From Pyrodictium abyssi (GTDB lineage: Archaea > Thermoproteota > Thermoprotei_A > Sulfolobales > Pyrodictiaceae), in NCBI RefSeq assembly GCF_036323395.1, contig NZ_AP028907.1, positions 1,230,001 to 1,262,000 of the forward strand: a stretch of DNA of 32,000 nt. The letters are read 5' to 3'. A program made the translations under genes and the position numbers. The notes beneath the pieces were generated by a model that was not told where the DNA came from, made no database searches, and was given only the letters and a program-made list of their open reading frames with translations. Positions 4,914-28,210 of the stretch are shown piece after piece (position 1 is the stretch's first letter; every line of letters starts with the position of its first letter).

Positions 4914-5954
4914 GTGCATCCTCTTAGGCTGTGGGGCTCTAGCGTGGTAGTCAGGTTCGTGGACCGTGTTGCCGAGCTATCCGTCCTCCAGGGGTTTGCT
5001 GAGCGCGGTGCTGGTGTGCCCATCTACCTCTACGGCCCAGAGGGCTGTGGCAAGACGCGGCTGCTGCGTGAGCTTGTCTCGAGGCTAGAGGGGGCGCGGG
5101 ACTACCTCGTAGTCTATGTTGACGCCCTGGAGGAGAGGGACCCTGGCAGGGCTGTCCGGGGCTCGGAGGAGCTGCGGCGCCTACTGCTCGACGCAGTCCG
5201 CGGTGCCGCCGGGGGCCCGCTTGGCGTGCTCCTGGCCTACGCTGTTACCCGCGTCGTGTCTAGCCTTGAGCGGCGGCTCGTCGAGGGCAGACACGTAGTC
5301 GTCATAGTGGATGACGTGGCCCGGCCGCTGGGCCTCGAGAGGCTCGAGGCTTATGTGAAGAGCCTTCTCCGGCTAGTAGAGTACGACCTAGCCGAGCTGT
5401 ATCCCGCCTCGGTGCTAGTCGTAGCCTCTACGAGCGAGGGGCTAAGCCTGGAGAGGCTACGGCGCCACCCTACGTGGGTTTCGCTACGGCTTCTCTGGGG
5501 CCTGCCCCGCAGTGCTTTCCACGAGCTCGCCACGGGCCTCGGGGCCCCGGATACGGGTGTTGCCGAGGAGGCGTGGAGGCTTACTGGGGGCAACCCCCGG
5601 GCCCTAATACAGATAGCTACGGTCTACATGTGGGACATCGACGCCTGGCTGAGGGGCCTCGACGCCAGCCTAGCCGCGCCCCTGGTAGCAGAGGCGAGGG
5701 CACGTGGGCTGCTGCACGCCCTCCAGCGGGTAGTCGCGGACCCAGACAGCATAGTAGCCGAGGCGGACCCGGCTCTCCAGCAGGTGGCCCGGCTCCTTCT
5801 CAAGAACAACCTCATCGTGTACAAGGCGGTAGCAACGCTGACGGGGGAAACCATACCGGCTGACCCCGGGCTGGGGATTGGCAGCTACTACGCGTGGCAG
5901 CTACCGGCGTACCGCGAGCTGTTGAGGAGGCGGCTCGGGGAAGCCGGGGGCTAG
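4914..5954 (+). CDS. Archaeal P-loop NTPase (Arch_ATPase-like), paralogue A
   Basis: FVDRVAEL N-terminal block, Walker A YGPEGCGKTRLL, Walker B HVVVIVDDV. About 45% identical by eye to ORF 29866..30879. GTG start at 4914, though GTG 4944 just before FVDR is equally plausible. Its TAG stop overlaps the purM stop in the palindrome CTAG (5951-5954). Confidence 0.75.
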   Translation: MHPLRLWGSSVVVRFVDRVAELSVLQGFAERGAGVPIYLYGPEGCGKTRLLRELVSRLEGARDYLVVYVDALEERDPGRAVRGSEELRRLLLDAVRGAAGGPLGVLLAYAVTRVVSSLERRLVEGRHVVVIVDDVARPLGLERLEAYVKSLLRLVEYDLAELYPASVLVVASTSEGLSLERLRRHPTWVSLRLLWGLPRSAFHELATGLGAPDTGVAEEAWRLTGGNPRALIQIATVYMWDIDAWLRGLDASLAAPLVAEARARGLLHALQRVVADPDSIVAEADPALQQVARLLLKNNLIVYKAVATLTGETIPADPGLGIGSYYAWQLPAYRELLRRRLGEAGG

Positions 5955-7012
5955 TACGTTATGCGGCCGTAAACCGTGTCAAGTATTATCCTCGGCTCGG
6001 CGGCCCCGGCTTGCTCGACCCTGCCGAGCACGTGAGCCCGGTGGCCGTGCCGCTTGGCTAGGCTGAGTAGCTCGTCTAGGCTGTCCCTGGGCGTTGCTAC
6101 TACTAGTCCTACACCCATGTTCCATACCCGGTAGGCCTCGCTGGGCTCCACGCCGCCGGCCTCCACTAGGACCTGGAACACCCGTGGCGGCTCCGGCATC
6201 TCCATCACTGCTGCCGCGCCCTGCGGGAGGATGCGCCGCATCTTTGTGAAGGCCCCGCCGGTGATGTGGGCGGCCGCGGTAAGCAAGCCCCGGCTCCAGG
6301 CCTCGAGGAGGAACCCTGTGTAGTCCCTCACGGGCTTGGCCAGCTCCTCGGCGAGGTCCAGGCCGTCTACCACCACGTTGTAGCCGCCTAGCCGCTCCAG
6401 GGCTATCCTCCTAGCCAGGCTATAGCCGTTGGCGTGCAGCCCGTTGCTCTCGAGGCCTACCAGCACGTCGCCTGGGCGGACGCGGTTGCCCCGCCAGCCT
6501 GGCTCGCGCAGGGCGAGGACCGTGCAGACTACGTCTACTCCCTGGGCGAGGCCTGGGAGTATCGCTGTCTCCCCGCCGAGGAGCAGAGCGCCGGTTGCCT
6601 CTGCAGCCTCCCTGACGCCTTCGAGTATCTCGCGGAACACATGCTCGTCGGCCCGCGGCATGGCTATGTAGTCTACAAGGGCTACCGGGCGAGCCGCGTC
6701 GCACGCGACATCGTTCGTGTTCATCACCACGCAGTCCCAGCCGGCTACGCGCAGCCTTCCGAGCCTCTCCAGCACGAGCGTCTTGGTGCCGACACCGTCC
6801 ACGTGGAGTACTAGCTCCCGCCCGTGCAGCTCTATGGACGACGTGTATGCCTCTCGGCGGCCGGCTAGCAGCCTGGATGCCAGGCCGTGGAGCACCTCGC
6901 TAGCGTCGAGGTCCACCCCGGCGTCCCGGTAGCTCAGACCCCTCCCGGTACCACTACTGTCCCGGGGCAAGGGCGGCCCATACCCCGCGAGACGCCAGTG
7001 CCAGGCAAGCAA
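5951..7012 (-). CDS. purM: Phosphoribosylformylglycinamidine cyclo-ligase (AIR synthetase)
   Basis: LSYRDAGVDLD N-terminal block, HVDGVGTKT, LLGGETA and NGYSL blocks typical of PurM. TTG start at 7012; the in-frame TTG at 6970 would give a more canonical N-terminus. Confidence 0.9.
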   Translation of the reverse strand: MLAWHWRLAGYGPPLPRDSSGTGRGLSYRDAGVDLDASEVLHGLASRLLAGRREAYTSSIELHGRELVLHVDGVGTKTLVLERLGRLRVAGWDCVVMNTNDVACDAARPVALVDYIAMPRADEHVFREILEGVREAAEATGALLLGGETAILPGLAQGVDVVCTVLALREPGWRGNRVRPGDVLVGLESNGLHANGYSLARRIALERLGGYNVVVDGLDLAEELAKPVRDYTGFLLEAWSRGLLTAAAHITGGAFTKMRRILPQGAAAVMEMPEPPRVFQVLVEAGGVEPSEAYRVWNMGVGLVVATPRDSLDELLSLAKRHGHRAHVLGRVEQAGAAEPRIILDTVYGRITY

Positions 7013-7064
7013 TAAGGGCTATCCCCGCTGCGCAGCAGGACTCCCAGGCCCGGGAAGACCAGGG

Positions 7065-8243
7065 ATGCACTCTACGGGGACGGGGGTCCTGCGCCGCTGC
7101 AGCCTCTGTGGCAGGGAGGCCCTCGTCTCGACCTCCATCGGTGTATGCGCCCGGTGTCTCCGCGAGAGGCCCCAGGAGGCGCTAGCGCTCGTCCGCCGGA
7201 GGCGCATGGAGTGGCGGGCCCGCTACGGGCTCCCGCCAGCTCCGCCCCGCGACCCGGAGGGGGTCCCGTGTAGGCTCTGCGTGAACGAGTGCCAGATCCC
7301 CCGCGGGGGACGAGGCTACTGCGGGGTATGGGCCAACAGAGATGGGCGCTTGGAGCCACTGGCGGGGCGTGGCCGGCTCCTAGTGTTCACGTACCTCGAC
7401 CCGCACCCTACGAACTGCGTGGCTGAGCCGGTGTGCCCCGCGGCGACGAGCCGCGGCTACCCGCGCTACACGTTCACCCGTGGCGTCGAGAAAGGGTTCT
7501 ACAACCTCGCCGTGTTCGCGGGCGGGTGTCCGCTCGACTGCCTCTTCTGCCAGAACCCCGAGCACAAGGCCATGGTTGCCCGGGGCCGGCTCGAGCCCCG
7601 GTACGTGAGGAGCGTAGAGGACCTCGTGGAGGAGGCGCTGGACCCCAGGGTGACATGTATATGCTTCTTCGGCGGCGACCCAACGCCGCAGATGCCCGTG
7701 CTGATAGAGGCCTCGCGAAGAGCGCTCCAGCGGGCTAGGGGCCGCGGGCTGCCCCTAAGGGTGTGCTGGGAGACCGACGGCCTGGCCAACCCGGCTGTGT
7801 TCCGCGAGGCTGCCCGGCTCAGTCTCGAGAGCGGCGGAGTAGTGAAGATCGACTGGAAGGCCTGGAGCCCCGGGGTATACGAGGCACTGACCGGCGTGGA
7901 CGGCCACCGGGCCCTAGAGAGGCTCCGCGAGAACACCAGGACCACCGCAGAGATGGCCGCCGGGAGGCCGGAGCCCCCGCTCCTCGTGGTGAGTATGCTC
8001 CTCGTCCCGGGCTACGTCGACGCTGAGGAGGTCAGGGGCGTGGCAGGCTACATAGCGGGCCTCATGGAGGAGTATGGCGTGAACATCCCCATGGTGCTGC
8101 TGGCCTTCCACCCGGACCACCGGATGCTGGACCTCCCGCCTACGAGCCGCCGCCACGCCCTAGAGGCCAAGAGGGCAGCACTAGAGGCCGGCGTACGAGA
8201 AGTCTACCTGGGCAACACATGGCTCCTCGGAGACCACTACTAG
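7065..8243 (+). CDS. Radical SAM enzyme of the PflA/PflX/AmmeMemoRadiSam-like activase group, with N-terminal zinc ribbon
   Basis: CxxxCxxC radical-SAM cluster in GGCPLDCLFCQNPEH. An upstream Cys cluster CRLCVNECQIPRGGRGYCGVW resembles the N-terminal cluster of activase-like radical SAM proteins. An extra CSLCGRE...CARCLRE ribbon sits at the N-terminus. Confidence 0.85.
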   Translation: MHSTGTGVLRRCSLCGREALVSTSIGVCARCLRERPQEALALVRRRRMEWRARYGLPPAPPRDPEGVPCRLCVNECQIPRGGRGYCGVWANRDGRLEPLAGRGRLLVFTYLDPHPTNCVAEPVCPAATSRGYPRYTFTRGVEKGFYNLAVFAGGCPLDCLFCQNPEHKAMVARGRLEPRYVRSVEDLVEEALDPRVTCICFFGGDPTPQMPVLIEASRRALQRARGRGLPLRVCWETDGLANPAVFREAARLSLESGGVVKIDWKAWSPGVYEALTGVDGHRALERLRENTRTTAEMAAGRPEPPLLVVSMLLVPGYVDAEEVRGVAGYIAGLMEEYGVNIPMVLLAFHPDHRMLDLPPTSRRHALEAKRAALEAGVREVYLGNTWLLGDHY

Positions 8244-8261
8244 GCTCCGCCCCGGAAGGCC

Positions 8262-8696
8262 CTAGGGGTCTAGCCCCTTCTCCTCCATGTAGCCTAGGAG
8301 CCTGCTGAGCAGCCTTCGGGCGTCGCTGCGGAGCCTCCGAGCATGCTCTAGCAGAAGCTCGTAGTCTATATCGGCGTATACATGCACTATCACGTTGCGT
8401 AGGCGGGCAAGCTGCGCTAGTAGCTCGCCCTCGCCACGGCTTAGCACCCCGTGGCGGGCGAGTACAGCGCCCACCTCGCTGTAGCTGCCCGGAGGCTCCC
8501 AGCCCATAACGGAGACTATGTAGCACCCGATATCCAGCAGCCCCTGAATAACCACCTCGACCTCGCGCTCCAGCAGAGGAGCCAAGTCCCTCTCCATAAG
8601 CTCCTCAAGGCCCATCTCGGCTACACGGTCGAGCCGCTCGATAGCCTTCAGGATTCTATCCACTCTACGTGCAACACCAGGCCTCAACCCGGCCAC
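8262..8696 (-). CDS. hepT: HepT (DUF86, HEPN-fold) RNase toxin
   Basis: 144 aa. The Rx4HxY HEPN motif is present as RNVIVHVY. It lies 27 nt downstream of a minimal nucleotidyltransferase gene. Confidence 0.85.
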   Translation of the reverse strand: MAGLRPGVARRVDRILKAIERLDRVAEMGLEELMERDLAPLLEREVEVVIQGLLDIGCYIVSVMGWEPPGSYSEVGAVLARHGVLSRGEGELLAQLARLRNVIVHVYADIDYELLLEHARRLRSDARRLLSRLLGYMEEKGLDP

Positions 8697-8723
8697 GCAC
8701 CCGCCAGAGAAGGCTACCAGCTA

Positions 8724-9122
8724 CTAGACTGCGAGCACGCGGCGGCGATAGGACCGGTGCATCTCCTCATAAGCTTCCCGGTAGTCCAGCCACTCTACTA
8801 GAGCCCTCCACCGGTCCTCCACAAAAGCCTGGTAGTCGCCACCCACAAAGGCACCCCTCACAAGCGCCTCGTAGAGCAGCGGCAGACTAGCTCTTTCAAC
8901 CAATACCACCTCCACACGCCTACCTGTTTCAGCCTCGACAGCCTCTGCTAGCCTACCAGCCTCCACCGGAGAAAAGCCGCGGACAGCAAGATCCACGTCA
9001 CTAAGCCCACTACACCGCCCTTCAGCAGCACTACCGAACACCACGACATAGCCACCAGGCCCTAGCCCAAACCCCTCTACAACACGCCTAACCACCCGGA
9101 GAAGCTTCCTACAGCCAACCAT
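8724..9122 (-). CDS. mntA: MNT minimal nucleotidyltransferase antitoxin
   Basis: The GSx(n)DxD motif is present as VVVFGSAAEGRCSGLSDVDLAV. The track ORF runs to 9386, but its upstream 88 aa are Cys/Gly/Arg-rich and non-native. The start is therefore placed at ATG 9122 (132 aa, normal for MNT). Confidence 0.8.
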   Translation of the reverse strand: MVGCRKLLRVVRRVVEGFGLGPGGYVVVFGSAAEGRCSGLSDVDLAVRGFSPVEAGRLAEAVEAETGRRVEVVLVERASLPLLYEALVRGAFVGGDYQAFVEDRWRALVEWLDYREAYEEMHRSYRRRVLAV

Positions 9123-9611
9123 CCTGCCACCACACAGCAGGCCAGGAGCCCTACGACCACAGCGTACCAGGTGCCCTCCACAGCCTATAAGCACAAAGCC
9201 CCGAGCACCACGAATAGCCATCAGTCCTCCGAACTCCTCGCCGATACCCTTGGCGCCACGCAGCAGCCTAGACACCGCCTCCTCGCGGAGATGCAGCAGT
9301 AAGACGCCCCAGAGCCCCTCTCTCGGAGACCCGGATAAAGTGCAAGACGATATATAGAAGAACGTGCAGATAAAGCTTGCCAGCAAGGAGAGATATCTAT
9401 AAGGTAGACGGTATGTATCAATCTACACGGTGAAGATTCCTAGTGAGATTTATTTAGTCCACCTTTCCCCGATATAGACGTCTACTTAATCTTCCTACTT
9501 GCAACAATCACTACAATTATAGCAGGTAATATCCTTCACCTGCAAAAGAGGAGGCAACAGCAACTCCTTTGGATAGAAGCCATGCACAAATGAATCTCGT
9601 CATACCTGCAA

Positions 9612-9968
9612 GTGAAAAGTAAAGCTAGTAGCACCATTACTGCCAGGTCTTCGTCGTACAAGCTCGCTATAGAAATCCTAAGGGAGGTTCTAAGGAAAGC
9701 AAAGGTCTATCTCCATACGATAGAGCGGAATAAAACTTGGAGAGCGAACATACTCTCATCCGAGCTTAATACTGCGCTTATACTCGACTCGACAATAGTT
9801 AACGACACTACACTAGTTGATTTTATGGTTGCAACTAGAAACCTTACAACCTCAGCGAGCAAGATCTGCGACAACATCTACAGTGTATCAATCATCGTGA
9901 ACCCGGGTAGAGACATAAGGACCTCCAAGGGCGTGTACCTAATACTGATACCAGCAAGCAAACCATAG
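9612..9968 (+). CDS. Hypothetical orphan protein inside an AT-rich island
   Basis: This is the only ORF over 60 aa in the roughly 42% GC stretch 9390..10110. GTG start, Ser/Thr/Asn/Ile-rich, no recognisable motif. An open frame of 118 codons in AT-rich DNA is mildly significant, and nothing else supports it. Confidence 0.25.
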   Translation: MKSKASSTITARSSSYKLAIEILREVLRKAKVYLHTIERNKTWRANILSSELNTALILDSTIVNDTTLVDFMVATRNLTTSASKICDNIYSVSIIVNPGRDIRTSKGVYLILIPASKP

Positions 9969-10078
9969 CTTTGTTGCACCATATAGAGAGCGATACGCCC
10001 CTAAGTTGTTGCCCCAAGCGTCTGGGCGAACAATAAGGTATGTGTAGATTCTCTACCTAGTTGTCCTGGTTGTCCTGA

Positions 10079-10101
10079 AACCTTGAAACATCATCAAGGT
10101 T
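10079..10101. repeat. Perfect 8-bp inverted repeat AACCTTGA-N7-TCAAGGTT, preceded by tandem 9-mers TTGTCCTGG/TTGTCCTGA (10061-10078)
   Basis: Read directly from the sequence. It lies at the boundary between the AT-rich island and the 3' end of the DUF89 pseudogene. Function is unknown; a terminator or recombination site are possibilities. Confidence 0.5.
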
Positions 10102-10190
10102 GTGGTGCAGGTGATGCGCCCTAGCCTTCGGGCCACGGGGTCTGCGGACCGTCGCCACATATCCGTAAAATTCTGTAGAGGCTTGATGAG

Positions 10191-11060
10191 TTATCCACGC
10201 TTGATGACTATGTCGCCTACCTTGACCCCTAGGTCCTCAGCCACTACCGGGCACTTGGCCATTGAGAGGAAGTATATTCCCTCCACGCTGCTTAGATCCT
10301 CGTAGTTTCCTTGCCCCTTGGCTACTGCTAGGTCGTGGCTCCTTATCCACGAGAGTACTTCTGGCGAGTAGCGCTCGGGCCATGTGCCGGGCTTCCCGCT
10401 CGAGACCCTCTTGAACTCTATGTTCGGCAGCCGGTCTAGCCCTCACGTAGAGTGCGTCCTCTATCGTGGCGTTGTTGATTATTGAGCCTTCCTTGACGAC
10501 GAAGGATATTTTCTTGAAGGGTCTTCCTCTGGCCCGGATCATCTCCTCTATTATGAGCTTGTCGAGGACTGTCTCTCCCGCGTTGTCGGCGAAGTATAGG
10601 AGGGTTTCCGCGCTCTGTACCTCCTCTCTCAGCCTGCTATAGTCGTCTATGGCTGGCTTCTGCTTCATGACCTTCTCGATAGTGGCTCTAAGGTCGTAGG
10701 TCTCGACAGCGGCGAAGTCGATTATGTTACCCGCTATAGCCGCCTTAACGGCAGCCCTTAGCGGGTCCTCGTGCCGGGCTATCATGGATTTAACCTCGTC
10801 CACTATTGCCGGGGCCTCATCGTTGCTCGCCTTCTTGAGCTCCCTATACGGGTCGAGGACGCCCGTTAGCTCCTCGACTAGCCCAGCGACCCCGAGGCCC
10901 TAACAAGCTGCGGCGGAGTGCCAGCCCATCCTATCTCGGTTAGATGGCGCATCACCCTACGTAGCACTTCCTCCTGTACCCGGGGGTCGTCCGTCGCTAG
11001 TCTAGCCGCTCTAAGCGCCTGCCTAGCTATACACACTACACAGTCCAGCCGGAGCTTCAT
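10191..11060 (-). pseudogene. DUF89 (ARMT1-like damage-control phosphatase) gene interrupted by two compensating frameshifts
   Basis: N-terminus MKLRLDCVVCIARQALRAARL...GTPPQL is in the frame of ORF 10878..11129. The middle part GLVEELTGVLDPYRELKK...AIAGNIIDFAA...LLYFADNAGETVLDKL...NNATIEDA is in ORF 10237..10803. The C-terminus, which I translated by hand, is GLDRLPNIEFKRVSSGKPG...HDLAVAKGQGNYEDLSSVEGIYFLSMAKCPVVAEDLGVKVGDIVIKRG with its stop at 10191-10193, and it returns to the N-terminal frame. Frame breaks lie near 10900 and 10445. Confidence 0.75.
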
Positions 11061-11189
11061 ACAGTACCAGCCACGGGTAGGGCGCCACACCATGCCACAA
11101 GGATATAAGCAATCCAACACCAGAGGCATAGAGCCCCGGTGAGCCTTATACCCGGTAGTAATGGCTAGGTGACTTATTGTAGATCCCTG

Positions 11190-11623
11190 CTACGGGATGA
11201 CTCTAAGCCACGGGATACGCTCAAAGTCCCGGTCAAGCGTCGCCATAGTGTCTATCCCTTGGTACTTACATGTCAATGCGATTATAGAGTCTGCGAGCAT
11301 GAGGCCGTACCTTTCGGTGACCTCGATTATCTCACGAGGCTCCGACGTTATAGGCAGGGCTATGAACAGCCCCAGTATGGGTTCTACTTCGTTTCTTATC
11401 AGCGTGATGAGCTTCTCGTCTCTTTTGCAAGCAGCTGTCTTATTCTCTTCGAGCTAAGCCCGGTGGCTAGTCTTAGATAGCCATAGATAACCTCATTCAC
11501 TACTATGGCGTTAATGTAGCCGGTAATAGCGTGGTCTTCAACCTTCTCGATAATCCTGTAGGCCCGCTGGTCCTGGCCTGCCAGGAAAGCCAAGATCACA
11601 CTAGAATCCACGAATATCCTCAT
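11190..11623 (-). pseudogene. vapC: PIN-domain VapC-type toxin with one frameshift
   Basis: N-terminus MRIFVDSSVILAFL (first catalytic Asp) is in ORF 11399..11623. The C-terminal half, translated by hand in another frame, is EKLITLIRNEVEPILGLF...YGLMLADSIIALTCKYQGIDTMATLDRDFERIPWLRVIP, with its stop at 11190-11192. The frame break lies near 11410-11440, and the span is not a multiple of 3. Confidence 0.75.
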
Positions 11624-11825
11624 TCTCTATCTCCTCAATAACCTCCAGGAACTCGCTCCTTGTCAGCTTTGGTCTATGCTTCCTCACAATACCGTAGAAC
11701 TTCTGGGCGAGGGAGCCTTCGCCGGCCTTTAGGACAATCACCACCTCCTCTCCTTCCTTCATCTCCAATGGTTCTAGTGGTTTGAGCACACCGTTCTCAT
11801 ACCTTGCTCTTATGACTCTGGGCAA
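11601..11825 (-). CDS. DUF104 (AF2212-like) antitoxin partner of the PIN gene
   Basis: 74 aa. IRARYENGVLKPLEPLEMKEGEEVVIVL is the characteristic DUF104 block. It overlaps the PIN start by 23 nt. Confidence 0.8.
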   Translation of the reverse strand: MPRVIRARYENGVLKPLEPLEMKEGEEVVIVLKAGEGSLAQKFYGIVRKHRPKLTRSEFLEVIEEIENEDIRGF

Positions 11826-12865
11826 CTCAACCCCCTCCTAAAGGTAGACGTTCTAGCCACTTAGCCTTTCCCCGCTAGAACCACCTACGCGCCACCAAAC
11901 GGTAACCATGCACGAAAACGCGCCCCAGTCCAGCGGCGCCAGACACAGGTAGGGGGCCTTTTGCCGCCCCGGCCCGGGGGCTCTATCCTGGCGCCTTCCC
12001 GTCAAGGGCTGTATGGCTGGGCTCGTACAGCGCCACCGTGTAGGTAATGGTCCCGCAGGGGCCTTCGAAGTAGCGGCGGACCACCATAGGCAGGTCGCCG
12101 CCCGGCTTTATGGGGTCGAGATGCCCGATAGACCATTCTTAGACGACATATAGTCATTACTATTTACTAGCACGACTTTTATACCTACAATCGCCATAGC
12201 CGCTATCGCTGCTAGGAGTATTACTGCACGACCACCACTACTATTACGTAGTACTCGTTCCACAACATCACCACCATATACGATGATTCTATACGTATAT
12301 ACTCAGTGAGAGTCCAAACTAACCTAGAAGCTGAAAAGCTGTTCCAGCTAGTAGATGAGCTACCCAATATTCTTCTTCATAAGATCAGATGCTAGCCGGC
12401 CCAAACACTGGCTGCTACATGTGTAGCAAGCTGCTAGCCCTTCTCTCCGACTATCTTTGCGTCCATGCGTCCCTTGGCGTATACCCAGTCTCCTACCCGG
12501 AGCTCCCTCCTCGGGTCTCCTCTTACTGATGGCCAGTTCGCTACGAGCACTATCCCGCAGTCGAACACTATCCAGTGCCTCTTCTCCGCTCTCCGCCGGG
12601 GCGTCCTCCACGATGTCAACTACCTGCCCGAGGCAGGCATAGCTCGGGGCAGCGGGTACCTTGTCACCTGCTTAATGAACTTCTCAGGGACATTAGCCCT
12701 GCCCATGTAGAAGGTCATTACTTCATCTAGAGCCTGCCCATGGCCGCGGAGACGCCGTCACGGCCGTGCCCACGGCTTGCCGAGGGAACCACTATGCATC
12801 GGGCCCGGCTGGTACAGGTGCATGGAGGGGCTAGGCGGGGGTGACAATGCAGCCCCCGGGAGGCT

Positions 12866-14236
12866 CTAGGCCTCATGTTGTGTGCTGGTTGCTGCCTTCT
12901 TTACGCAGCCTATCGCGGTCTCTGCTAGCTCTTGCGGCCCGAGTGCTTCGAGGCCTGGGGGTGGCGGTGACTCTATGCCGCCTAGGCAGGCTATGCCCAC
13001 TCTTCGGGCGCCTATGGCTTCTGCGCGCTGGAGAACGGTCTTCATGTCGCTTTGGCTGCATGGGCCGAGCTTGACCTCGTAGGCTGCTATGGCTCTGCGG
13101 CCCCCGTGGTCGAGTACCACGACGTCTACGTCGCCTTGGCCGTCTGGCAGGATTGTGTAGGCTTGTAGGCCTCCGTGGTGCTCGGCGAGTAGCTCGCCCA
13201 GCGTGAACTGTAGTTCTCTCGCGTAGAGGCTGCGGGTGGCGTCGAGGAGGAGTTCTGGATCGCGGTGTGGGTGCTCGTCTACGCCGTAGATCTCGGCCAG
13301 CCCGTAGACTATAGCTAGTAGTGGCGAGGAGTGGCGGTAGTAGACGCGGGCGCCCCGTGTGCGCCAGAGCCGGGTCTTGGCTACTAGCCCTATCTCGGAT
13401 AGCCGGTCGAGGAGCCCCGTAGCCGGGCCTGCTCCGGGGCTGGAGAGGAGGCCCCGCTGGTATAGGAGGCCTGCTAGCTTCGCGCTGCTCCATACCCCGG
13501 CTGCTAGTAGGCGGAGGGCTGCCTCGTAGAGTCTTGTTAGCCGTCTCTCCTCCTCCTCGAAGACCTCTCCTATGAGCCCCCGCGCCATTTGCGCCAACAT
13601 GTAGGCGTTGCCAGCAATGAAGCGCCAGGGCTCGCCCTCGAGCCCCGGGGCCAGTGGCAGGAGCCAGGGCTCTCGCAGCACGACGCCCCATAGCAGGGCG
13701 TGGCGAGGCCCAAGCCGGGGTAGAAGCGACGAGACCACGTCGGCGTAGCGTAGCGGGTCTACGCGGAGGGGTAGCACTAGGCCTAGTAGGGGGCTGCGGC
13801 GGTCGAATACGCGATTCGCGACCCCGAGGCTAGAGGCTACGAGGACAAGCCTGCCCTCGGGGTGGCGTGTGGCTAGTAGGTCCCAGTAGCGCTCCGGTAG
13901 CCGCTGGAACTCGTCGACAACCACTACACCGTCCTCGGCTAGCAGCTCCACAGCCCTAGACATGGCCTCCCCTATCTCGGTGACCGTAGGCTTCTTCCCG
14001 GGCTCCTCCACTACCGCTGATAGGTCGCGCGTCACAGTCACGTAGAGCCGCCATGGGAGGAGCAGGCGTGCCATGAAGCTCTTCCCGGTCTTCCTACGCC
14101 CGTAGACCAGGAGCCAGCCGCTGCGGCGCTTCAGCTCGAGGAACTCGCGCCGCCATAGTACATGTGTCTCCTCCAACGCTTCTGCCCGGTATACCCGCTG
14201 GAATATACCCGCGAGTATATACCCACCGGAATGCAC
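12866..14236 (-). CDS. Archaeal AAA+ ATPase (COG1672 / Arch_ATPase) with C-terminal DUF234 nuclease-like domain
   Basis: Walker A LLVYGRRKTGKSFM and Walker B VVVVDEFQRL. The C-terminal block GDVDVVVLD...AYEVKLG is typical of the DUF234 restriction-endonuclease-like module. Confidence 0.85.
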   Translation of the reverse strand: MHSGGYILAGIFQRVYRAEALEETHVLWRREFLELKRRSGWLLVYGRRKTGKSFMARLLLPWRLYVTVTRDLSAVVEEPGKKPTVTEIGEAMSRAVELLAEDGVVVVDEFQRLPERYWDLLATRHPEGRLVLVASSLGVANRVFDRRSPLLGLVLPLRVDPLRYADVVSSLLPRLGPRHALLWGVVLREPWLLPLAPGLEGEPWRFIAGNAYMLAQMARGLIGEVFEEEERRLTRLYEAALRLLAAGVWSSAKLAGLLYQRGLLSSPGAGPATGLLDRLSEIGLVAKTRLWRTRGARVYYRHSSPLLAIVYGLAEIYGVDEHPHRDPELLLDATRSLYARELQFTLGELLAEHHGGLQAYTILPDGQGDVDVVVLDHGGRRAIAAYEVKLGPCSQSDMKTVLQRAEAIGARRVGIACLGGIESPPPPGLEALGPQELAETAIGCVKKAATSTQHEA

Positions 14237-14490
14237 GGGGCACGGCCACGATAAGGGGTGGCTAGCCTTGTTGGGACGCGTCTAGGGGGCACGCCCATGG
14301 ACAGCTGGAGCCGGCGACTATGCTCCCCGGGTCCGGGGCAATGGTTTATGCTTGGCTTATGCTTGCAGCCGGCCTCCCCCGGGGCTACCCGTAGGGCGGG
14401 GTGGAGCCGTTAGGAGCTGGAGGGCGAGGCCCCATGGGCTGGCAGAACATAGTCAGCTAGGAGACGTCAATAAGGATAGCCCAGACTTCG

Positions 14491-14498
14491 AAGAAAAA
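14491..14498 (-). terminator. Oligo-T tract (TTTTTCTT on the minus strand) about 30 nt downstream of the purT stop
   Basis: The plus strand reads AAGAAAAA at 14491-14498. Archaeal RNAP terminates at oligo-T runs, and this is the only such run after the last operon gene. Confidence 0.3.
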
Positions 14499-14528
14499 CG
14501 GTGAGGTGAGCATATAGGTAGGATTGTT

Positions 14529-15749
14529 TTAGGTGTGGCTGCGTGGGAGTATCTTTAGCTTCTCTGCTGCCCGTCTGGCCTTGGCGCGGGCTTCCTCGGG
14601 TGTCTCGGCACGGGCTAGTACTACTGCCATGCGGCGGCCCCGGTAGGTTCTGGGCTTGCCGAACCAGCGCAGCTCTACGCCCGGCTCGGCTAGGGCCTGG
14701 TAGGCGCCGCTGAGCACGGGGTACCACTCGCCGTCGAGGTTTGTGTATACTGCTATGCTGGCTGCGGGGGTTAGGACACTGGGCCTGGGGACGGGTAGGC
14801 CTACTGCTGCGCGTACGTGGGCTTGGAACTCGCTGATGTCCTGGCTGGCTAGGGTGACTAGGCCTGTGTCGTGGGGCCTGGGCGCCACTTCGCTGAAGAG
14901 GAGCCGGCCGTCCCTAGTCTGTAGGAGCTCGACGCCGAATACCCCGACGCCGCCTAGGGCCTCTGCTACCCGTGCTGCTATCTCGCGGGCCCGGTGGAGC
15001 AGGCCCGTGGGCCTGGTGCTGGGCTGCCAGGACTCTATGTAGTGGTACTCGCCGTACCTCCAGTGCTCGACCGGCTCCATAGCGTCTGTTCTCGCCTTGT
15101 CGCCGTCGAGCCACCGGTAGGCGAGGACAGTGTACTCTGTCTCTAGCTCAACGTACTCCTCCACTATGACGCGGCGGCTCGCACCCCGGGCGTGGCTTAT
15201 CGACTCCATGTAGGCCTTCTCGACAGCCTGGCGGCTAGGCTCCGCGACCTTTACGTGGCCGTGGCCGCTACTGCTCATCTCGGGCTTGATTAGGCAGGGG
15301 TAGCCGACCTTCTCGCAGGCCTCGTAGGCCTCCTCAGGCGTCTCGGCGAAGGCATACCTTGTGGTGGGTAGGCCTAGCTCCTCGGCCGCCCAGCGCCGCA
15401 GCTCTATACGGTTCATCGCTATCCTGACTGCCCGCGCGTTGGGCACCACGTGGTAGCCCTTCTCCTCGAGCCTCTCCAGCGCCTCGGTGTTGATGGCCTC
15501 TATCTCGGGTACCACCGCTACCGGGTTCTCGCGCTCCACGATGGCCTCCACTGCGCCCGCGTCGAGCATGTCCACGACGTAGCGGCGGTGGGCTACGTGC
15601 ATCGCTGGGGCCCAGTCGTAGCGGTCGACAACGACCACCTCTAGGCCGAGCCGCTGCGCCTCTATCGCTACCTCCTTGCCTAGCTCGCCGCCGCCTAGTA
15701 GGAGCACCTTGGCTGCTCCGGGGCCCAGAGGGCTGGGTATGGAGTCCAT
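14529..15749 (-). CDS. purT: Formate-dependent phosphoribosylglycinamide formyltransferase (GAR transformylase 2)
   Basis: KVLLLGGGELGKEVAIEAQRLGLEVVVVDRY, ATP-grasp blocks and PEMSSSGHGHV. The track ORF extends to 16001, but that part overlaps purD and is Arg/Pro-rich. The start is therefore placed at ATG 15749 (MDSIPSPLGPGAAKVLLLGGG), giving 406 aa. Confidence 0.9.
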   Translation of the reverse strand: MDSIPSPLGPGAAKVLLLGGGELGKEVAIEAQRLGLEVVVVDRYDWAPAMHVAHRRYVVDMLDAGAVEAIVERENPVAVVPEIEAINTEALERLEEKGYHVVPNARAVRIAMNRIELRRWAAEELGLPTTRYAFAETPEEAYEACEKVGYPCLIKPEMSSSGHGHVKVAEPSRQAVEKAYMESISHARGASRRVIVEEYVELETEYTVLAYRWLDGDKARTDAMEPVEHWRYGEYHYIESWQPSTRPTGLLHRAREIAARVAEALGGVGVFGVELLQTRDGRLLFSEVAPRPHDTGLVTLASQDISEFQAHVRAAVGLPVPRPSVLTPAASIAVYTNLDGEWYPVLSGAYQALAEPGVELRWFGKPRTYRGRRMAVVLARAETPEEARAKARRAAEKLKILPRSHT

Positions 15750-15844: not shown

Positions 15845-17350
15845 CTAGCTGTAGTCGTGGACTATTAGGCCGCGGCCGGGTATCCAGTCGTAGATCCTGG
15901 TCTCGCCTCGGGCGCGGCGCCTCGTGTAGGCCTTCCTCACGCGCTCGGCTAGCGCCACGCGGCTCTCTATGTGGCTCCTCTGGCCTATGTCGCGGCGCCA
16001 TACGAGGGGGTGGCCGTCGAGAAGCCTCACCGCCTCCGCCGCGCGCTGGGCCCTGGCGGCTGCGTCCTCGTAGCCCTGGCTGCTCCAGCAGACTATCTCC
16101 ACGAGACGGGAGCCCGTGGAGACGAGGCCGCGGGGGCCCTGGTCTACCCCGGCGTAGAGTAGCCTGCAGCCCTGGCGCTCGACAGCGTCTCTGTCTACGG
16201 CCACCGGGTGACCCCGGGCTAGGGCCCGGTTGTTGGGGTAGCCTGCGGGTGCTAGCGCGATGTTGACCACGTAGACGTCGTTGTCTACCTCTAGCCGGTA
16301 GCCGGCTAGCCTGCCCGAGGCTGCGCGGTCCAGCAGCTCTAGGAAGTCGCTCCGCAGCATGGGGAGCAGGTTGCCGGTCTCGGGGTCGCCAAACCTGGCG
16401 TAGTACTCTATGACCGTGGGGCCCCAGAGGCTGGTGAGCATCATCTGGCCGCTAATGGTGCCGCGGTAGGGCTCCCCGGTCTCCCGCCGGAGGGCCTCCA
16501 CGGTCTTCTCGAGTACCTCGACTGTCTCCCGGTACTCGCCGAGCTCGAGGAAGGGAGGCACAACGCCGGGCCCGCTGACCGCGCCCATTCCCCCAGTCTC
16601 GGGGCCGAGGTCCCAGCTGAAGAGGTGGGGGTGGTCCTGTACCACTGGCAGCGGCACCAGCGTGGAGCCGTCAGTGACCGCCATCACGGTGTACTCTACG
16701 CCCTCAACCCTCTCCTCGACTATAACCGAGTAGTCTATGTCGCTGTACTTCTCCCGCACCTCGCGGGCCAGCTTCTCCGCGTAGCTCCCCGCCGCCCCGC
16801 GCACCGCTGCCCCAAGGTGCTCCATGGGCTCCGCGAAGACGCGTACGCCGCGGCCGCCAGCCTGCCGGGCAGGCTTGACCACCACGTCGCCCGCTGCGCG
16901 GGCGTACTCCGAGGCCTCCTCGGGGTCCGTGAAGACCTGGTAGCGTAGCCGCCCCGGGATACGGTAGCGCCACATGAGCCCGCGGGCATAGGCCTTGTCC
17001 TTCTCTATCCGGGCCTGTGCCCTGCCGGGGCCGTAGACTGTGAAGCCCTTCTCCCGGAGCGCGTCCGCGACGCCCGCGAAGAGGGGCTCCTCGGGGCCTA
17101 TGACCACGAGGTCTGGGCTCCAGTCCTCGGCCGCCTGGAGGGCGTCGCCGGGGCTAGTGGGCTTGCCGGGGTAGAACCTTCCCCCGGTGTTCTCGGCGGC
17201 TTCTACTAGGCCTGGGTTCCTCTTGTCGCTTAGCACCGCTATGCGGGGCTCCATGCTGCTGCCCGCTATGAGCAGTGCGAGGGCGTGTTCGCGGCCGCCG
17301 CTGCCCAGTAGGAGCACCTTCACTCCCGGCTCACCTCCTCCAGCATGCAC
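15845..17350 (-). CDS. purD: Phosphoribosylamine-glycine ligase (GAR synthetase)
   Basis: VKVLLLGSGGREHALA N-terminal block and ATP-grasp core. GTG at 17350 opens the frame. GTG 17323 overlaps the TGA stop of the upstream purF paralogue as GTGA and is the more likely coupled start. Confidence 0.9.
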   Translation of the reverse strand: MHAGGGEPGVKVLLLGSGGREHALALLIAGSSMEPRIAVLSDKRNPGLVEAAENTGGRFYPGKPTSPGDALQAAEDWSPDLVVIGPEEPLFAGVADALREKGFTVYGPGRAQARIEKDKAYARGLMWRYRIPGRLRYQVFTDPEEASEYARAAGDVVVKPARQAGGRGVRVFAEPMEHLGAAVRGAAGSYAEKLAREVREKYSDIDYSVIVEERVEGVEYTVMAVTDGSTLVPLPVVQDHPHLFSWDLGPETGGMGAVSGPGVVPPFLELGEYRETVEVLEKTVEALRRETGEPYRGTISGQMMLTSLWGPTVIEYYARFGDPETGNLLPMLRSDFLELLDRAASGRLAGYRLEVDNDVYVVNIALAPAGYPNNRALARGHPVAVDRDAVERQGCRLLYAGVDQGPRGLVSTGSRLVEIVCWSSQGYEDAAARAQRAAEAVRLLDGHPLVWRRDIGQRSHIESRVALAERVRKAYTRRRARGETRIYDWIPGRGLIVHDYS

Positions 17351-18543
17351 GCCGTGCAGGGGTCTATGCCGTGGCTCTTGAGGTAGGAGACGGCCTCGCC
17401 TAGGGGGAGCCAGGCTAGGCTATCCACGTCGAGGACGCGCTCTATCGCATCGTCGCTTAGCTGGCGGGCTATCAGGCTGCCTGGCTCTAGGAGCTGGACG
17501 CGGTGGGGGCACGTGGCTACTATCTTGGGGCTCGAGACTGCTACGTGCAGCTCGCGGGGGGCCTGGCTACGCCACAGCCTGTGGATGAAGGTCTTCAGCG
17601 TGAGCCCGGTAACCACGCTATCGTCGACTACCGCTACCCGTCTCCCCTCGAAGACGCCGGGCACGGGGTTGAACTTGAGGCTGAGCATCATCAGCCTCTC
17701 CTCCAGCGACGCCTGGGCTATGGCGGTTCTCACACGGCCTATCGTGGAGACTAGCGCCAGCTCCATGGGGGCCTGCTTCTCCTCGGCGTAGCCTAGGGCG
17801 TAGGGGAGCGCGGTCTCCGGTACCCCTACCACGACGTCTACCTCCACGGGGTGGCTGCGGGCGAGCCGCCGGCCCATCTCCCGGCGGAACAGGTACACGT
17901 TCACGCCGTCCACGAGGCTGTCTGGGCGCGCCAGGTAGATGTACTCGAAGAGCGAGGTGGCGCGGCGGCCCCTGCCGGCGCTGTAGGTGTCGAGCGTGTA
18001 GCGGTCCCCGTAGACAGCCTCGCCCGGCTCGAGGTCGCGGCGGGGCTCCCCGCCCATCAGGGTTATGGGCGCTGTCTCCGTGGCGGCGTAGACTGCGTCG
18101 AACCCGTAGCCGCCTAGGCTGAGGGGCCGTACCCCGCTCCTCCCCCGGTACAGCACGTAGCCGCCGCTGCCTGTCAGCGCCGCTACCGTGCAGCCGTCGA
18201 ACCTGGTGCTAGAGGCCAGCGCCTCGGCTGCCTCGCGGGGGCTCCCAGCGGCCTCCACCAGCCTCAGTGCCTCCGCTGCGCTGCATGCACCGTCCACGGC
18301 CACGGCTGCGCTGCGTGAGGCGGCGAGGCTCCCAGTGGGCTCCACTGCCGCTAGTACCGCGCTGCCCTCGGGTAGGCTCCAGCCGTTGCTCCACGGGTTG
18401 AGCCTTCCCTGCTCTAGCCCGTCGCCGCGTAGAACCGCGTAGGAGACCCTTGGCCCGCGGTGCCGCAGCCCCATGACGCCGTAGCGGGCGTAGAGGCCGG
18501 CTGGCTGGTCTGGCTCGTAGAAGTAGACTAGCAGTACGCCCAT
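17320..18543 (-). CDS. Amidophosphoribosyltransferase paralogue with a degenerate glutaminase domain
   Basis: Collinear with PurF. It retains FEYIYLARPDS and the PRPP loop RRVAVVDDSVVTGLTLK. It begins MGVLLVYF, so there is no Cys after Met, and it lacks the NGN oxyanion block. Start placed at ATG 18543, 10 nt after the purF stop; the longer track ORF would overlap purF by 98 nt. Confidence 0.8.
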   Translation of the reverse strand: MGVLLVYFYEPDQPAGLYARYGVMGLRHRGPRVSYAVLRGDGLEQGRLNPWSNGWSLPEGSAVLAAVEPTGSLAASRSAAVAVDGACSAAEALRLVEAAGSPREAAEALASSTRFDGCTVAALTGSGGYVLYRGRSGVRPLSLGGYGFDAVYAATETAPITLMGGEPRRDLEPGEAVYGDRYTLDTYSAGRGRRATSLFEYIYLARPDSLVDGVNVYLFRREMGRRLARSHPVEVDVVVGVPETALPYALGYAEEKQAPMELALVSTIGRVRTAIAQASLEERLMMLSLKFNPVPGVFEGRRVAVVDDSVVTGLTLKTFIHRLWRSQAPRELHVAVSSPKIVATCPHRVQLLEPGSLIARQLSDDAIERVLDVDSLAWLPLGEAVSYLKSHGIDPCTACMLEEVSRE

Positions 18544-18553
18544 GCCGTATGGC

Positions 18554-19909
18554 TCACCTCCTGCCCTCTGTGAACACCTTCTCGAGACGGGGTACGTCCA
18601 GGGGGAGGGGGTAGGCTCCGCCGAAGCATCCGAGGCAGAGGCGGCGGCCAACAGCCTCCTCTAGGTCCCTCAGGCCGAGGTACAGTATGCTGTCAACGCC
18701 CAGGGCCCTGGCGACCTCGTCTACGCTCCTACCGTGGGCTACTAGCTCGCCGCGGCTTGGCATGTCTACGCCGAGGAAGCAGGGCATGACCACGGGCGGC
18801 GAGGCGACGCGTAGATGCACCTCGCGGGCCCCTGAGCGGCGGAGGATGTGGGCTAGCCACCTGCTGGTGGCGCCGCGGACTACGCTGTCGTCGACGAGGA
18901 TTATTCTGCGGCCCCAGGTCGTCGAGCGTATCGGGTTGAACTTGCGCTTGAGCCTCCCGTTCCTCTCGCCTGGGGGCGCTATGAAGGCGCGGCCAGCGTA
19001 CCGGTTGCGGTATAGGACCTCGGTGTAGGGGAGTCCCCGCTCCATGGCGTAGCCTATGGCCGCGCTCCGGCCGCTATCCGGGACCGGCGCCACCAGGTCG
19101 GCCTCCACTGTGTCGCGGCGGGCGAGCCGCCGGCCCATCTCGAGCCTGGCCGCGTGGGCCTCGACGCCCTCGAAGACGCTGTCGGGCCTGAGGAAGTATA
19201 CGTACTCGAACGCGCATGGCCGGGGCTCGTGCCCGGGGGCTAGCCCGGTCTCGACGCAGTCCTTGGGGGAGCCGTTGCAGTGGAGCATCCTCCCCGCGCC
19301 TACCTCTCTCCAGGGGAGCCCCATCGAGTCTAGCGCGGCCGTCTCGCTGGCCACGGCGGCGTAGCCGTCGCCCACCGCGTAGGCGAGAGGCCTGACCCCG
19401 TAGGGGTCCCGGGCGGCTGCTAGCTCGCCGCGGGCCGTGACTGCTACGAGGCTGTAGGCCCCGCGTAGGAGGCGCGCTGCCTCCCTGAGGGCGTCGGCGA
19501 GGCTCCCCTGCTCCAGGTAGAGGGCCTCCACGAGGTCTGCTACGAGCTGGGCATCCCAGGTGTAGCGGCGGCCTAGCAGCTCCCGGCCCAGCTCCCGGTA
19601 GTTGACAATGTTCCCGTTATAGGCTATGTAGACTAGCTTCTTGCTGCCAGCCACCGGCTGGTAGTGCTCGCCGCCGTACCCGCCGCTCGTGCTGTACCTC
19701 ACATGCCCAATAGCAGCCCAGGCGCCGGAGGCGGCCGTGGGGAGGCGTATAGCCTCCTGCACGAGCCCGGGGCCGCCGACGAGCCTTACGCCGCCGCCGG
19801 CTAGGAACGCTATCCCCGCGGCCTCCTGGCCCCGGTGCTGGAGCTCCAAGAGCAGCTCGTAGACCGCCGAGGCCGCGTCCCTGCCCAGCCAAGCTGCTAC
19901 GCCGCACAC
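18554..19909 (-). CDS. purF: Amidophosphoribosyltransferase (glutamine PRPP amidotransferase)
   Basis: Ntn-type MCGVAAW N-terminus, LQHRGQEAAGIA, HVRYSTSG and YNGNIVNY. PRPP loop RRIILVDDSVVRGATS. Fe-S Cys positions RPCAFEYVYF, MPCFLGVDMP and CLGCF. Confidence 0.92.
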   Translation of the reverse strand: MCGVAAWLGRDAASAVYELLLELQHRGQEAAGIAFLAGGGVRLVGGPGLVQEAIRLPTAASGAWAAIGHVRYSTSGGYGGEHYQPVAGSKKLVYIAYNGNIVNYRELGRELLGRRYTWDAQLVADLVEALYLEQGSLADALREAARLLRGAYSLVAVTARGELAAARDPYGVRPLAYAVGDGYAAVASETAALDSMGLPWREVGAGRMLHCNGSPKDCVETGLAPGHEPRPCAFEYVYFLRPDSVFEGVEAHAARLEMGRRLARRDTVEADLVAPVPDSGRSAAIGYAMERGLPYTEVLYRNRYAGRAFIAPPGERNGRLKRKFNPIRSTTWGRRIILVDDSVVRGATSRWLAHILRRSGAREVHLRVASPPVVMPCFLGVDMPSRGELVAHGRSVDEVARALGVDSILYLGLRDLEEAVGRRLCLGCFGGAYPLPLDVPRLEKVFTEGRR

Positions 19910-22103: not shown

Positions 22104-22774
22104 CCCCTGCGCAGCGCTTCGCCTATCGACGTGAAGAACGGGTGGCCCCCGGGCCTGCGGCCGCGGGGGACCTGGAGTGGGCTCGCCGCTCGCTCCGGGT
22201 GCGGCATTAGGCCGAGAACGGCTCCGTCCTCGGAGGCCAGGCCGGCGACGTCTGCGACGCTGCCGTTAGGGTTCTCGAGGTACTCTAGCCAGGGCCTGGA
22301 CCGGAGTAGCTCCCCGGGCGCGGGGTGGTAGAAGCGCCCCTCAGCATGGGCCACCGGCATGTCTAGCACAGCGCCGGGCTCCACGTGGAGTAGCCAGGGG
22401 CCGCGCGGGCTGTGCACCCGGACCCGGAGCCACCTGGCCACGAAGCGGCCGCCCTCGTTGGGTAGGAGGGCGCCGGGGAGTACGCCCGCCTCCACGAGGA
22501 CCTGGAACCCGTTGCATATCCCGAGGATAGGGGCGCCGTTCTCGGCCGCCTCGCGGAGCTGCCTGGCCGCGGGGCTCCAGGAGGCTAGGAGCCCAGCGCG
22601 CCCGTAGTCCCCGTAGCTGAAGCCTCCCGGCACAACTGTAGCGTCCCAGTCCCTCCAGCGGTACTCGGTGTGCCACACTACGCGCGCCTCTACGCCGGCC
22701 ACCTCGCGCAGCATGTAGGCTGTCTCCTGGTCGCAGTTAGTGCCGGGGAACCGGAGCACAGCGACTCTAGGCAA
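22097..22774 (-). CDS. purQ: Phosphoribosylformylglycinamidine synthase subunit I (glutaminase)
   Basis: VAVLRFPGTNCDQE, catalytic Cys in GICNGFQVL, and MPHPER. Confidence 0.95.
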   Translation of the reverse strand: MPRVAVLRFPGTNCDQETAYMLREVAGVEARVVWHTEYRWRDWDATVVPGGFSYGDYGRAGLLASWSPAARQLREAAENGAPILGICNGFQVLVEAGVLPGALLPNEGGRFVARWLRVRVHSPRGPWLLHVEPGAVLDMPVAHAEGRFYHPAPGELLRSRPWLEYLENPNGSVADVAGLASEDGAVLGLMPHPERAASPLQVPRGRRPGGHPFFTSIGEALRRGW

Positions 22775-23030
22775 GAGTGATCACCAGGAGCGTGTGGACC
22801 GCGGGGTTGAAGAGCCGGGTCTCGCGGGCCATTTCCTCTACGAGCCTCTCCGCCTCCTCCCTCGACTCAGCCTCGACCTCTACTATGAACGCCTTCCCGG
22901 CGCGGATCCCCTGGACCCAGGTGTAGCCTAGCCTTCTCAGCTCGTCTGCCAGCGTCTCGCCCTCAGGGTCCCGGGCCGACGGCTTGTAGGCTACTATTGC
23001 CAGCACACGGTGCCGGGTCAACCGGTGCAC
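22767..23030 (-). CDS. purS: Phosphoribosylformylglycinamidine synthase subunit PurS
   Basis: 87 aa, with DPEGETLADELRRLGY...IRAGKAFIVEVEA matching the PurS pattern. It sits between purC and purQ with 13-nt and 8-nt overlaps. Confidence 0.85.
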   Translation of the reverse strand: MHRLTRHRVLAIVAYKPSARDPEGETLADELRRLGYTWVQGIRAGKAFIVEVEAESREEAERLVEEMARETRLFNPAVHTLLVITLA

Positions 23031-23746: not shown

Positions 23747-23788
23747 CCCGGACCCCCGGGGTCCCGGAACTTGCCTGAGTAACTGGTC

Positions 23789-23798
23789 TAAAAATATT
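23789..23798 (-). promoter_or_regulatory. TATA-like element (minus strand AATATTTTTA) upstream of the pur operon
   Basis: This is the only AT-rich box between the upstream stop and purC. It lies about 45 nt upstream of CTG 23746. A 15-nt palindrome GGACCCC-C-GGGGTCC (23750-23764) lies between it and the putative start. Confidence 0.3.
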
Positions 23799-27330: not shown

Positions 27331-27385
27331 TCCTTAGGCGATAAGAGACCGAAAGAGGCTATTACAGATTTATGTAAATATAGAA

Positions 27386-27781: not shown

Positions 27782-27788
27782 TCCAGGG

Positions 27789-28205: not shown

Positions 28206-28210
28206 TCTAG

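Follow-up and report, generated by a model that had tools for sequence, protein, structure and literature searches.

The 32,000 nucleotides (nt) of the Pyrodictium abyssi chromosome analysed here (NZ_AP028907.1, positions 1,230,001 to 1,262,000; below, the window, numbered from its first letter) contain a purine biosynthesis operon that is interrupted between purT and purM by 7.5 kb of other DNA. An earlier note, made from the sequence alone, had described a mosaic of blocks of low guanine-plus-cytosine (GC) content at 9390-12720 and proposed that they were acquired from a lower-GC donor in several events. We found that the low-GC region is the core of a wider insertion, 7013-14528. Very probably this segment is a patchwork islet, assembled between purT and purM by several recombination events, whose imports came from the accessory gene pool of lower-GC Thermoprotei and are mostly decaying. 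The earlier proposal is thus supported: the composition deviates significantly, the blocks are not conserved in relatives, and part of the sequence is an 86% match to contigs of 55% GC.

The segment between purT and purM

The purine genes of the window and the segment that interrupts them are as follows.

23018-23680, minus strand: purC
22097-22774, minus strand: purQ
19920-22103, minus strand: purL
18554-19909 and 17320-18651, minus strand: purF, two copies
15845-17350, minus strand: purD
14529-15749, minus strand: purT, the right anchor, with a T5 run and lower-GC DNA 3' of it in place of purM
7013-14528: the 7.5-kb segment, not at this position in related loci
5951-7012, minus strand: purM (AIR synthase), the left anchor, identified by Pfam AIRS/AIRS_C, tblastn to relatives and junction sequences

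Synteny was examined with purT as the anchor against metagenome contigs, which gave 34 informative loci (the loci compared carry L numbers). In 19 of the 34, purM directly follows purT, with gaps of -45 to 450 nt, and this is the arrangement in all three of the closest informative loci, L119, L081 and L082. Junction sequences of relatives showed that purM begins 2-80 nt past the purT stop. Ten other informative loci have purQ-purL-purF between purT and purM. The order purC-purQ-purL-purF-purF-purD-purT-purM is matched gene for gene by L119 and largely by the other related loci. Compared with this conserved order, in which purT and purM adjoin, 7013-14528 is an insertion.

The earlier note had pointed out that blocks conserved in synteny across the family would be ancestral rather than acquired; with purM directly after purT in relatives, such conservation was not seen. 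An origin of the region in the ancestor of the family, with only its composition being odd, is extremely improbable. In its favour, L082 has a paralogous DUF104-PIN pair about 3 kb downstream of purM, and a homologue of the segment's ATPase lies beside the pur cluster of L119. The L082 pair, however, is a distant paralogue (antitoxin 47% identity), and in all 34 informative loci the interval between purT and purM is free of these genes and of any toxin-antitoxin or ATPase gene.

One local biological consequence is that purM is severed from the purine operon, and its expression would have to come from a new upstream region. The purT transcript would now end at the T-run near 14470-14485, after the purT stop, and purM would be expressed from an upstream region shared with a divergent radical SAM gene. 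No canonical start was found near the conserved SYRDAGV N-terminus of purM; the nearest in-frame TTG, at 7012, adds about 26 residues upstream and leaves a gap of only 52 nt to the radical SAM start at 7065. The tandem purF-like genes (17320-19909) overlap by about 100 nt, and the duplication is present in most of the related loci examined in detail, so that it is ancestral to the group. The relatives reached through the radical SAM and purT anchors (L001-L003, L007, L081, L082 and L119) range from 52% to 66% GC, which indicates that base composition is shifting fast in the group, with the lineage of the window at the high end.

Composition and gene content of the low-GC core

The GC content of 9390-12720 is 52.0%, versus 64.7% for the remainder of the window and 63.4% for the whole window, and this is the lowest-GC stretch of 3.3 kb in the window, about 2.6 standard deviations under the sliding-window mean. 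Penalised-likelihood segmentation of 7000-15000, for which the 99% null log-likelihood ratio was 13.5, gave change points at 9335, 10095, 11920, 12135, 12395 and, from a coarser run, 12730. The strongest edge is that at 9335, with a log-likelihood ratio of 156.9. The segmentation was as follows.

8195-9334: 61.5% GC
9335-10094: low-GC block 1, 42.9% GC, with no codon periodicity seen in a GC frame plot
10095-11919: 54.1% GC
11920-12134: 68.4% GC
12135-12394: low-GC block 2, 40.0% GC
12395 onward: 63.9% GC

Four 60-nt GC counts made by hand in the earlier note were exact (41.7%, 45.0%, 66.7% and 73.3%). Among the abrupt switches that it listed, those near 9390, 12120 and 12420 fall within 15-55 nt of computed edges; that near 11830 is instead a ramp, from the DUF104 start (11825) to 11920. 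The edge at 10095, merely implied earlier, is explicit in the segmentation. In tetranucleotide distance to the pur-operon core, 8751-10750 ranks highest, with the top five of 125 windows, and GC at third codon positions (GC3) is 0.83-0.85 in core genes versus 0.32-0.71 in the low-GC pieces, the imported genes having 0.50-0.71. By both the GC and the tetranucleotide scan the deviation is highly significant. Ordinary intergenic gaps in the window have 59-68% GC, so the 40-43% of the two low-GC blocks is not explained by non-coding status.

The largest block of the core holds three genes, all on the minus strand.

10125-11826, minus strand: the DUF104-PIN-DUF89 block, 50-57% GC, read as acquired
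10191-11060, minus strand: DUF89 / ARMT1-like phosphatase pseudogene (PF01937 matches to fragments)
11190-11623, minus strand: PIN (VapC-type) toxin pseudogene (PF01850)
11601-11825, minus strand: AF2212-like (DUF104) antitoxin, intact, 74 aa (PF01954; GC3 0.60), overlapping the PIN start by 23 nt

At the nucleotide level, 10125-11224 shares 86% identity with the metagenome contigs L124 and L125 (55% GC), and the match reaches the end of those contigs of 1.0-1.3 kb. For 10166-11224, blastn and alignment with L124 gave 86% nucleotide identity over 1066 nt and 89.5% in the coding sequence. The homology passes the DUF89 stop and ends at about 10125; the change point in composition, at 10095, is 30 nt away. 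Elsewhere, DUF89 orthologues (L122, L123, L131 and L133-L135) stand in a conserved TrkA-channel / DUF89 / Vut_1 / DUF5591 neighbourhood, and the two of these loci in which it was measured, L122 and L123, have 54-55% GC. Because the block matches the 55%-GC contigs L124 and L125 at 86% identity, and because DUF89 orthologues lie in another, conserved context, the block was probably acquired from a pool of genes lower in GC.

The contig L124 opens inside a PIN gene, of which it has the 3' end (ERIVWLKVIP*), so the PIN-DUF89 adjacency is common to the window and L124. The L124 tail has no match to Vut_1, the native neighbour of DUF89, which indicates that L124 is not the native context of DUF89 either. 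The shared junction in the window and L124/L125, the divergence past about 10125 and the native DUF89 context in six other assemblies suggest, tentatively, that DUF104-PIN-DUF89 might be a recombinase-free cassette travelling among Pyrodictiaceae-like genomes, in which a toxin-antitoxin pair carries a chromosomal neighbour. A related and equally speculative idea is that the AT-rich fragments (12135-12394 and the DUF8362 family described below) might derive from a pool of mobile archaeal genes, low in GC, that has yet to be described.

The DUF89 gene is split over three frames. When repaired, it encodes 289 aa, the length of all its homologues, and aligns over its full length, with 89% identity to P0001 and 82-83% to the next-best proteins. 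Relative to L124, L122 and L123, there is a 1-nt deletion at about 10893/10894 (CTCAGGGG to CTCGGGG) and a 1-nt insertion at about 10444 (CGTAGGG to CGTGAGGG), neither in a homopolymer. When substitutions were polarised, for which L122 and L123 served as outgroups, 49 changes fell on the window branch, distributed 11:15:23 over the three codon positions, and 12 (2:0:10) on the L124 branch. The spread over codon positions on the window branch indicates relaxed selection on this copy.

These substitutions bear on the possibility that the low GC is secondary, that is, that native genes were pseudogenised and then drifted AT-ward under a GC-to-AT bias such as cytosine deamination at high temperature. 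All of the low-GC blocks are indeed pseudogenes or fragments, and the window DUF89 branch is about fourfold faster than that of L124, with relaxed codon-position bias. That branch, however, has 26 AT>GC changes versus 22 GC>AT changes, and its GC3 of 0.69 is slightly above the 0.65 of the intact L124 orthologue; without an excess of GC>AT changes, the low GC of DUF89 was inherited and not produced by decay. Further, intact homologues elsewhere are equally low in GC, the intact DUF104 gene has a GC3 of only 0.60, and ordinary non-coding DNA in the window keeps 59-68% GC. AT-ward drift is thus a very unlikely source of the composition.

The earlier note had called both the DUF89 and the DUF104-PIN genes decayed. 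This holds for DUF89, with its two 1-nt indels, and for PIN, which is frameshifted, but not for DUF104, which is intact. The PIN frameshift lies in a 4-base homopolymer at 11424-11427 (T on the plus strand, A on the coding strand), and one added A restores 144 aa. Homologues of 144 aa, among them the proteins of Pyrolobus fumarii (73%), Pyrofollis and Aeropyrum, share 73-80% identity with the repaired PIN. It has a D to N change in the V(V/I)DEV motif (window VVDEV), where D is present in 16 of 16 full-length homologues inspected, and also a P to L change in MPADS. The DUF104 protein is 68% identical to a 74-aa homologue of P. fumarii. PIN lies immediately downstream of the DUF104 antitoxin, as it does in L126 and in L129 (P. 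fumarii), to which the nucleotide identity of the pair is 75% and 72.6%, respectively; the toxin-antitoxin genes of these two loci have 43-52% GC. The context of the pair differs per genome, with SfsA beside it in L126 and a Cmr module and HepT-MNT pairs in L129. The closest named homologue of the pair is that in L129 (Pyrolobus fumarii 1A, CP002838.1 414038-430472), where it lies between the type III (Cmr) CRISPR module and the HepT/HEPN-MNT pairs, so that its surroundings are another cluster of defence and toxin-antitoxin genes. The paralogous pair of L082 (7764-8455) follows an intact purT-purM-purP-purE-purP run, and its PIN gene also appears to be split over two frames.

Next to this block, low-GC block 1 contains one recognisable gene.

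9480-9968, plus strand: DUF8362-family pseudogene (phmmer to P0207-P0211, PF27819 annotation of P0207, tblastn and profile mapping, alignment)

This is the orphan open reading frame (ORF) of the earlier note, a label that has to be withdrawn in view of the phmmer and profile-mapping results. Exhaustive phmmer gave E-values of 7e-19 to 1e-6 against P0207-P0211, which are proteins of 227-256 aa with 53-41% identity plus a truncated member of 170 aa, and the DUF8362 label comes from the precomputed PF27819 match of the homologue P0207. A previous word-indexed search with a chimeric query of three unknown fragments, the 9480 ORF among them, had found no match; phmmer later solved the first of the three. 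A profile built from P0207-P0211 matches 9609-9818 and 9816-9950, and homology starts at a transmembrane segment, from 9480 onward. Before the transmembrane segment the copy lacks a canonical start; a TGA interrupts its frame at 9591-9593, and about 68 codons (profile positions 132-199) are deleted in frame at 9816-9818. An intact homologue elsewhere has 45% GC within a locus of 53% GC. The AT-rich 760 bp were also considered as a replication origin; this was rejected, as there are no repeated boxes and no cdc6 gene, and the DUF8362 pseudogene explains the stretch.

On the other side of the DUF104-PIN-DUF89 block are three short pieces.

11983-12138, minus strand: host-like 3' gene remnant (GC3 0.81), making up most of the high-GC block 11920-12134
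12108-12260, minus strand: N-terminal transmembrane-like fragment (GC3 0.32), in low-GC block 2
12434-12718, minus strand: small reading frame of host-like GC3 (0.72-0.75), with an in-frame TAG at 12620-12622

The first two overlap in different frames, the AT-rich piece in frame -3 and the GC-rich piece in frame -2, and their GC3 values differ with p = 8.5e-7 (Fisher). The frame break that the earlier note saw to coincide with a GC switch near 12120 is therefore real. The junction at about 12135 is a fusion, out of frame, of an AT-rich gene fragment to a GC-rich one, and it marks a recombination junction. No relatives of the three pieces were found in Pfam, PHROG or protein-database searches, and a sequence search of the PDB with the two remaining fragments gave only chance-level matches (E about 0.5-0.9). 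A structured RNA in the GC-rich stretch 11826-12134 was rejected: there was no Rfam match at E <= 1, and folding z-scores were -0.04 and 0.03 versus shuffled controls. By GC frame plot and GC3, this stretch is mostly coding remnant. No Rfam family was matched.

The sharp GC contrast of adjacent blocks, together with the position of the PIN frameshift in an A-run, might suggest an artefact, either a chimeric assembly or sequencing errors that mimic pseudogenes. This is highly improbable. The segment is bracketed by purT and purM, which have the same strand and composition, so that a chimera must leave and then re-enter the same operon, and blocks are as short as 215-260 nt. The DUF89 indels lie outside homopolymers, and the DUF8362 copy, with its 68-codon deletion and start loss, is beyond base-calling error. 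The excess of changes at codon positions 1 and 2 on the window DUF89 branch is as in real relaxed selection, and no frameshifts were seen in the pur genes of the window.

Origin of the segment and its other genes

Outside the low-GC core, the segment contains four genes with intact frames or motifs.

7065-8243, plus strand: radical SAM gene, intact ORF (69% GC, GC3 0.855)
8262-8696, minus strand: HepT-like toxin, intact (PF01934 over 1-118 of 120; the Rx4HxY motif is RNVIVHVY)
8724-9221, minus strand: MNT nucleotidyltransferase, the partner of HepT (PF01909/PF18765; GSAAEG...DVD motif; start at 9122 or 9221)
12866-14236, minus strand: AAA ATPase, intact frame (weak archaeal-ATPase-type matches)

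Host-like composition is seen in the radical SAM gene, in the ATPase gene and in two small remnants of genes. The HepT-MNT genes have the features of such a pair, a HepT with Rx4HxY beside an MNT with GS...DxD, as read from the translations; at 59-62% GC, they are somewhat under the host. The MNT region 8800-9250 has a GC skew of about -0.42 and an AT skew of about +0.46, the coding strand being G- and T-rich, and the MNT ORF runs about 100 codons upstream of the Pfam-matched domain. A gene with 58% identity to the ATPase flanks the pur cluster of L119 at its opposite end. Within the 32 kb there are three AAA ATPase paralogues of archaeal type (4914-5954, 12866-14236 and 29866-30879); two match PF01637 strongly and the inserted one weakly. 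The radical SAM gene has other neighbours in each relative examined: among 80 genome loci, none were shared with the window, and none among the relatives outside one genus. Gene order outside operons is therefore fluid in the group.

More than one event is indicated by the different flanks of the shared block in L124 and in the window, by the five internal change points and by the range of GC3, 0.32-0.81, in adjacent fragments. The donors resemble other Thermoprotei, of Pyrodictiaceae-like type and 50-55% GC, rather than Thermococcales, viruses or plasmids. The earlier note had put forward lower-GC Thermoprotei, Thermococcales, and archaeal viruses and plasmids as places to look for matches; of these, the donors resemble only the first, and no virus or plasmid matched.

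The segment, or its two unidentified AT-rich pieces, might alternatively be what is left of an archaeal virus or plasmid that had integrated. Toxin-antitoxin modules are often plasmid-borne, and both 12135-12394 and the DUF8362 gene, which has an N-terminal anchor and is Ser/Thr-rich, are far from host composition and without characterised function. We consider this reading very unlikely, since a search of each kind was negative. The absence of an integrase, tRNA target and long terminal repeat, already remarked on in the earlier note, was confirmed with Pfam, ARAGORN and a repeat search: no tRNA was found in the 32 kb, no integrase or recombinase domain in the ORFs or in six-frame Pfam of 11826-12870, and no long terminal or target-site repeats, beyond chance, pairing the ends of the segment or its blocks. 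The edge repeats noted earlier do exist, and both are at chance level: the tandem of the 9-mer TTGTCCTGR has 2.4 copies (TRF score 37), and a perfect 8-bp inverted repeat with a short loop is expected, by our estimate, about once per 3 kb. Searches of 9300-12800 by blastn against phage and plasmid collections gave no match, nor did PHROG with the fragments, and no relatives turned up in IMG/VR, which was scanned with the DUF8362 alignment, with PIN and with the ORFs at 9480 and 12434. Moreover, the homologues of DUF89 and DUF8362 lie among chromosomal housekeeping genes.

Several points weigh against a patchwork of imports from lower-GC Thermoprotei. The gene order at the radical SAM gene is conserved in no relative, and part of the 7.5 kb may be within-genome rearrangement and not import. 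L124 and L125 possibly come from a close relative of the host that carries the same block, in which case the last step would be vertical. The best-match identity of DUF89 and PIN is 80-89% versus 75-78% amino acid identity for core genes, a comparison between different collections and so not like for like. The PIN frameshift, lying in a homopolymer, could be a sequencing error. The pieces 12135-12394 and 12434-12718 have no homologue, so that the case for their foreign origin is one from composition. Finally, the events bear no mark in the form of a mobility gene, tRNA target or flanking repeat.

Taken with these points, an islet of patchwork origin is still what we propose. It would consist of relocated native genes together with imports from the accessory pool of other Thermoprotei, of 45-55% GC; we infer both the direction and the number of the transfers. 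The low-GC pieces are probably nonfunctional, given the DUF89 indels, the frameshift and substitution in PIN, the start loss, stop and deletion in the DUF8362 copy, and the fusion at 12135. They would have retained the GC of their donors, with drift to host composition still to come. The intact HepT-MNT pair and the orphan DUF104 antitoxin may aid the persistence of the segment, by analogy with proposals for crenarchaeal vapBC genes (PMC3119797).

Elsewhere in the window there are two further deviant spots. Immediately past purC there is a second gap of low GC, 23768-24544 (50.5% GC), after which comes another decayed-looking toxin-antitoxin pair. This consists of a PIN ORF without its N-terminus (24640-25005) and an overlapping ORF (24957-25310) that has a start like that of a ribbon-helix-helix antitoxin and then, in the same frame, a PIN-like N-terminus (GLIILDASALYPLAKLL). 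The third spot, 27251-28750, has the top dinucleotide deviation in the window; it contains a gag-Asp-protease-like ORF at 27386-27781 (52.5% GC), an unannotated ORF at 27789-28205 and a gap of 55 nt, 27331-27385, with only 34.5% GC.

Comparison with known systems

Labile, vapBC-rich chromosomal regions of Thermoprotei have been described in Acidianus hospitalis W1 (PMC3119797) and Sulfolobus islandicus LAL14/1 (PMC3718332). Like these, the segment has clustered non-essential genes and degenerate elements, and its VapBC-type pairs are of a kind gained and lost, with close homologues elsewhere in other contexts; toxin-antitoxin modules have been proposed to hold local DNA. Those regions, however, extend over hundreds of kb, whereas here the islet has 7.5 kb, lies inside a biosynthetic operon and is free of insertion sequences, miniature inverted-repeat transposable elements and CRISPR arrays. 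Also in contrast, the imports here are conspicuous in composition, the host being Pyrodictiaceae-like and high in GC. With classical genomic islands the segment shares atypical composition, absence at the syntenic site in relatives, accessory content and mosaic structure, but it lacks an integrase, a tRNA target and flanking direct repeats, and it includes genes of native composition.

The individual genes likewise resemble known systems in part. As in a VapBC-type pair with an AF2212-like antitoxin, PIN is downstream of and overlaps a 74-aa gene, with P. fumarii homologues at 73% (PIN) and 68% (antitoxin); unlike in a functional pair, the toxin is frameshifted and has the D to N change, and the antitoxin alone is intact. 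The DUF89 copy is like the DUF89/ARMT1-like phosphohydrolases (PMC9062747) in its PF01937 match and in its repaired length of 289 aa, which is that of its homologues; unlike these, it has two frameshifts and is displaced from the TrkA-channel / DUF89 / Vut_1 neighbourhood.

Horizontally acquired DNA is said to undergo compositional amelioration, a concept attributed to Lawrence and Ochman. In keeping with it, donor-like GC3 is kept here, and the DUF89 copy has a slight net AT>GC shift; unlike in amelioration, most of the imports are already pseudogenes, which drift without selection and are not domesticated. For annotation, an orphan ORF and odd short frames have become identified pseudogenes. 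In sum, the segment belongs with the ordinary variable regions of archaea and represents no new kind of system. It reveals no new mechanism and opens no new question; it offers a small, clear case of imports that have not ameliorated in a hyperthermophile of high GC.

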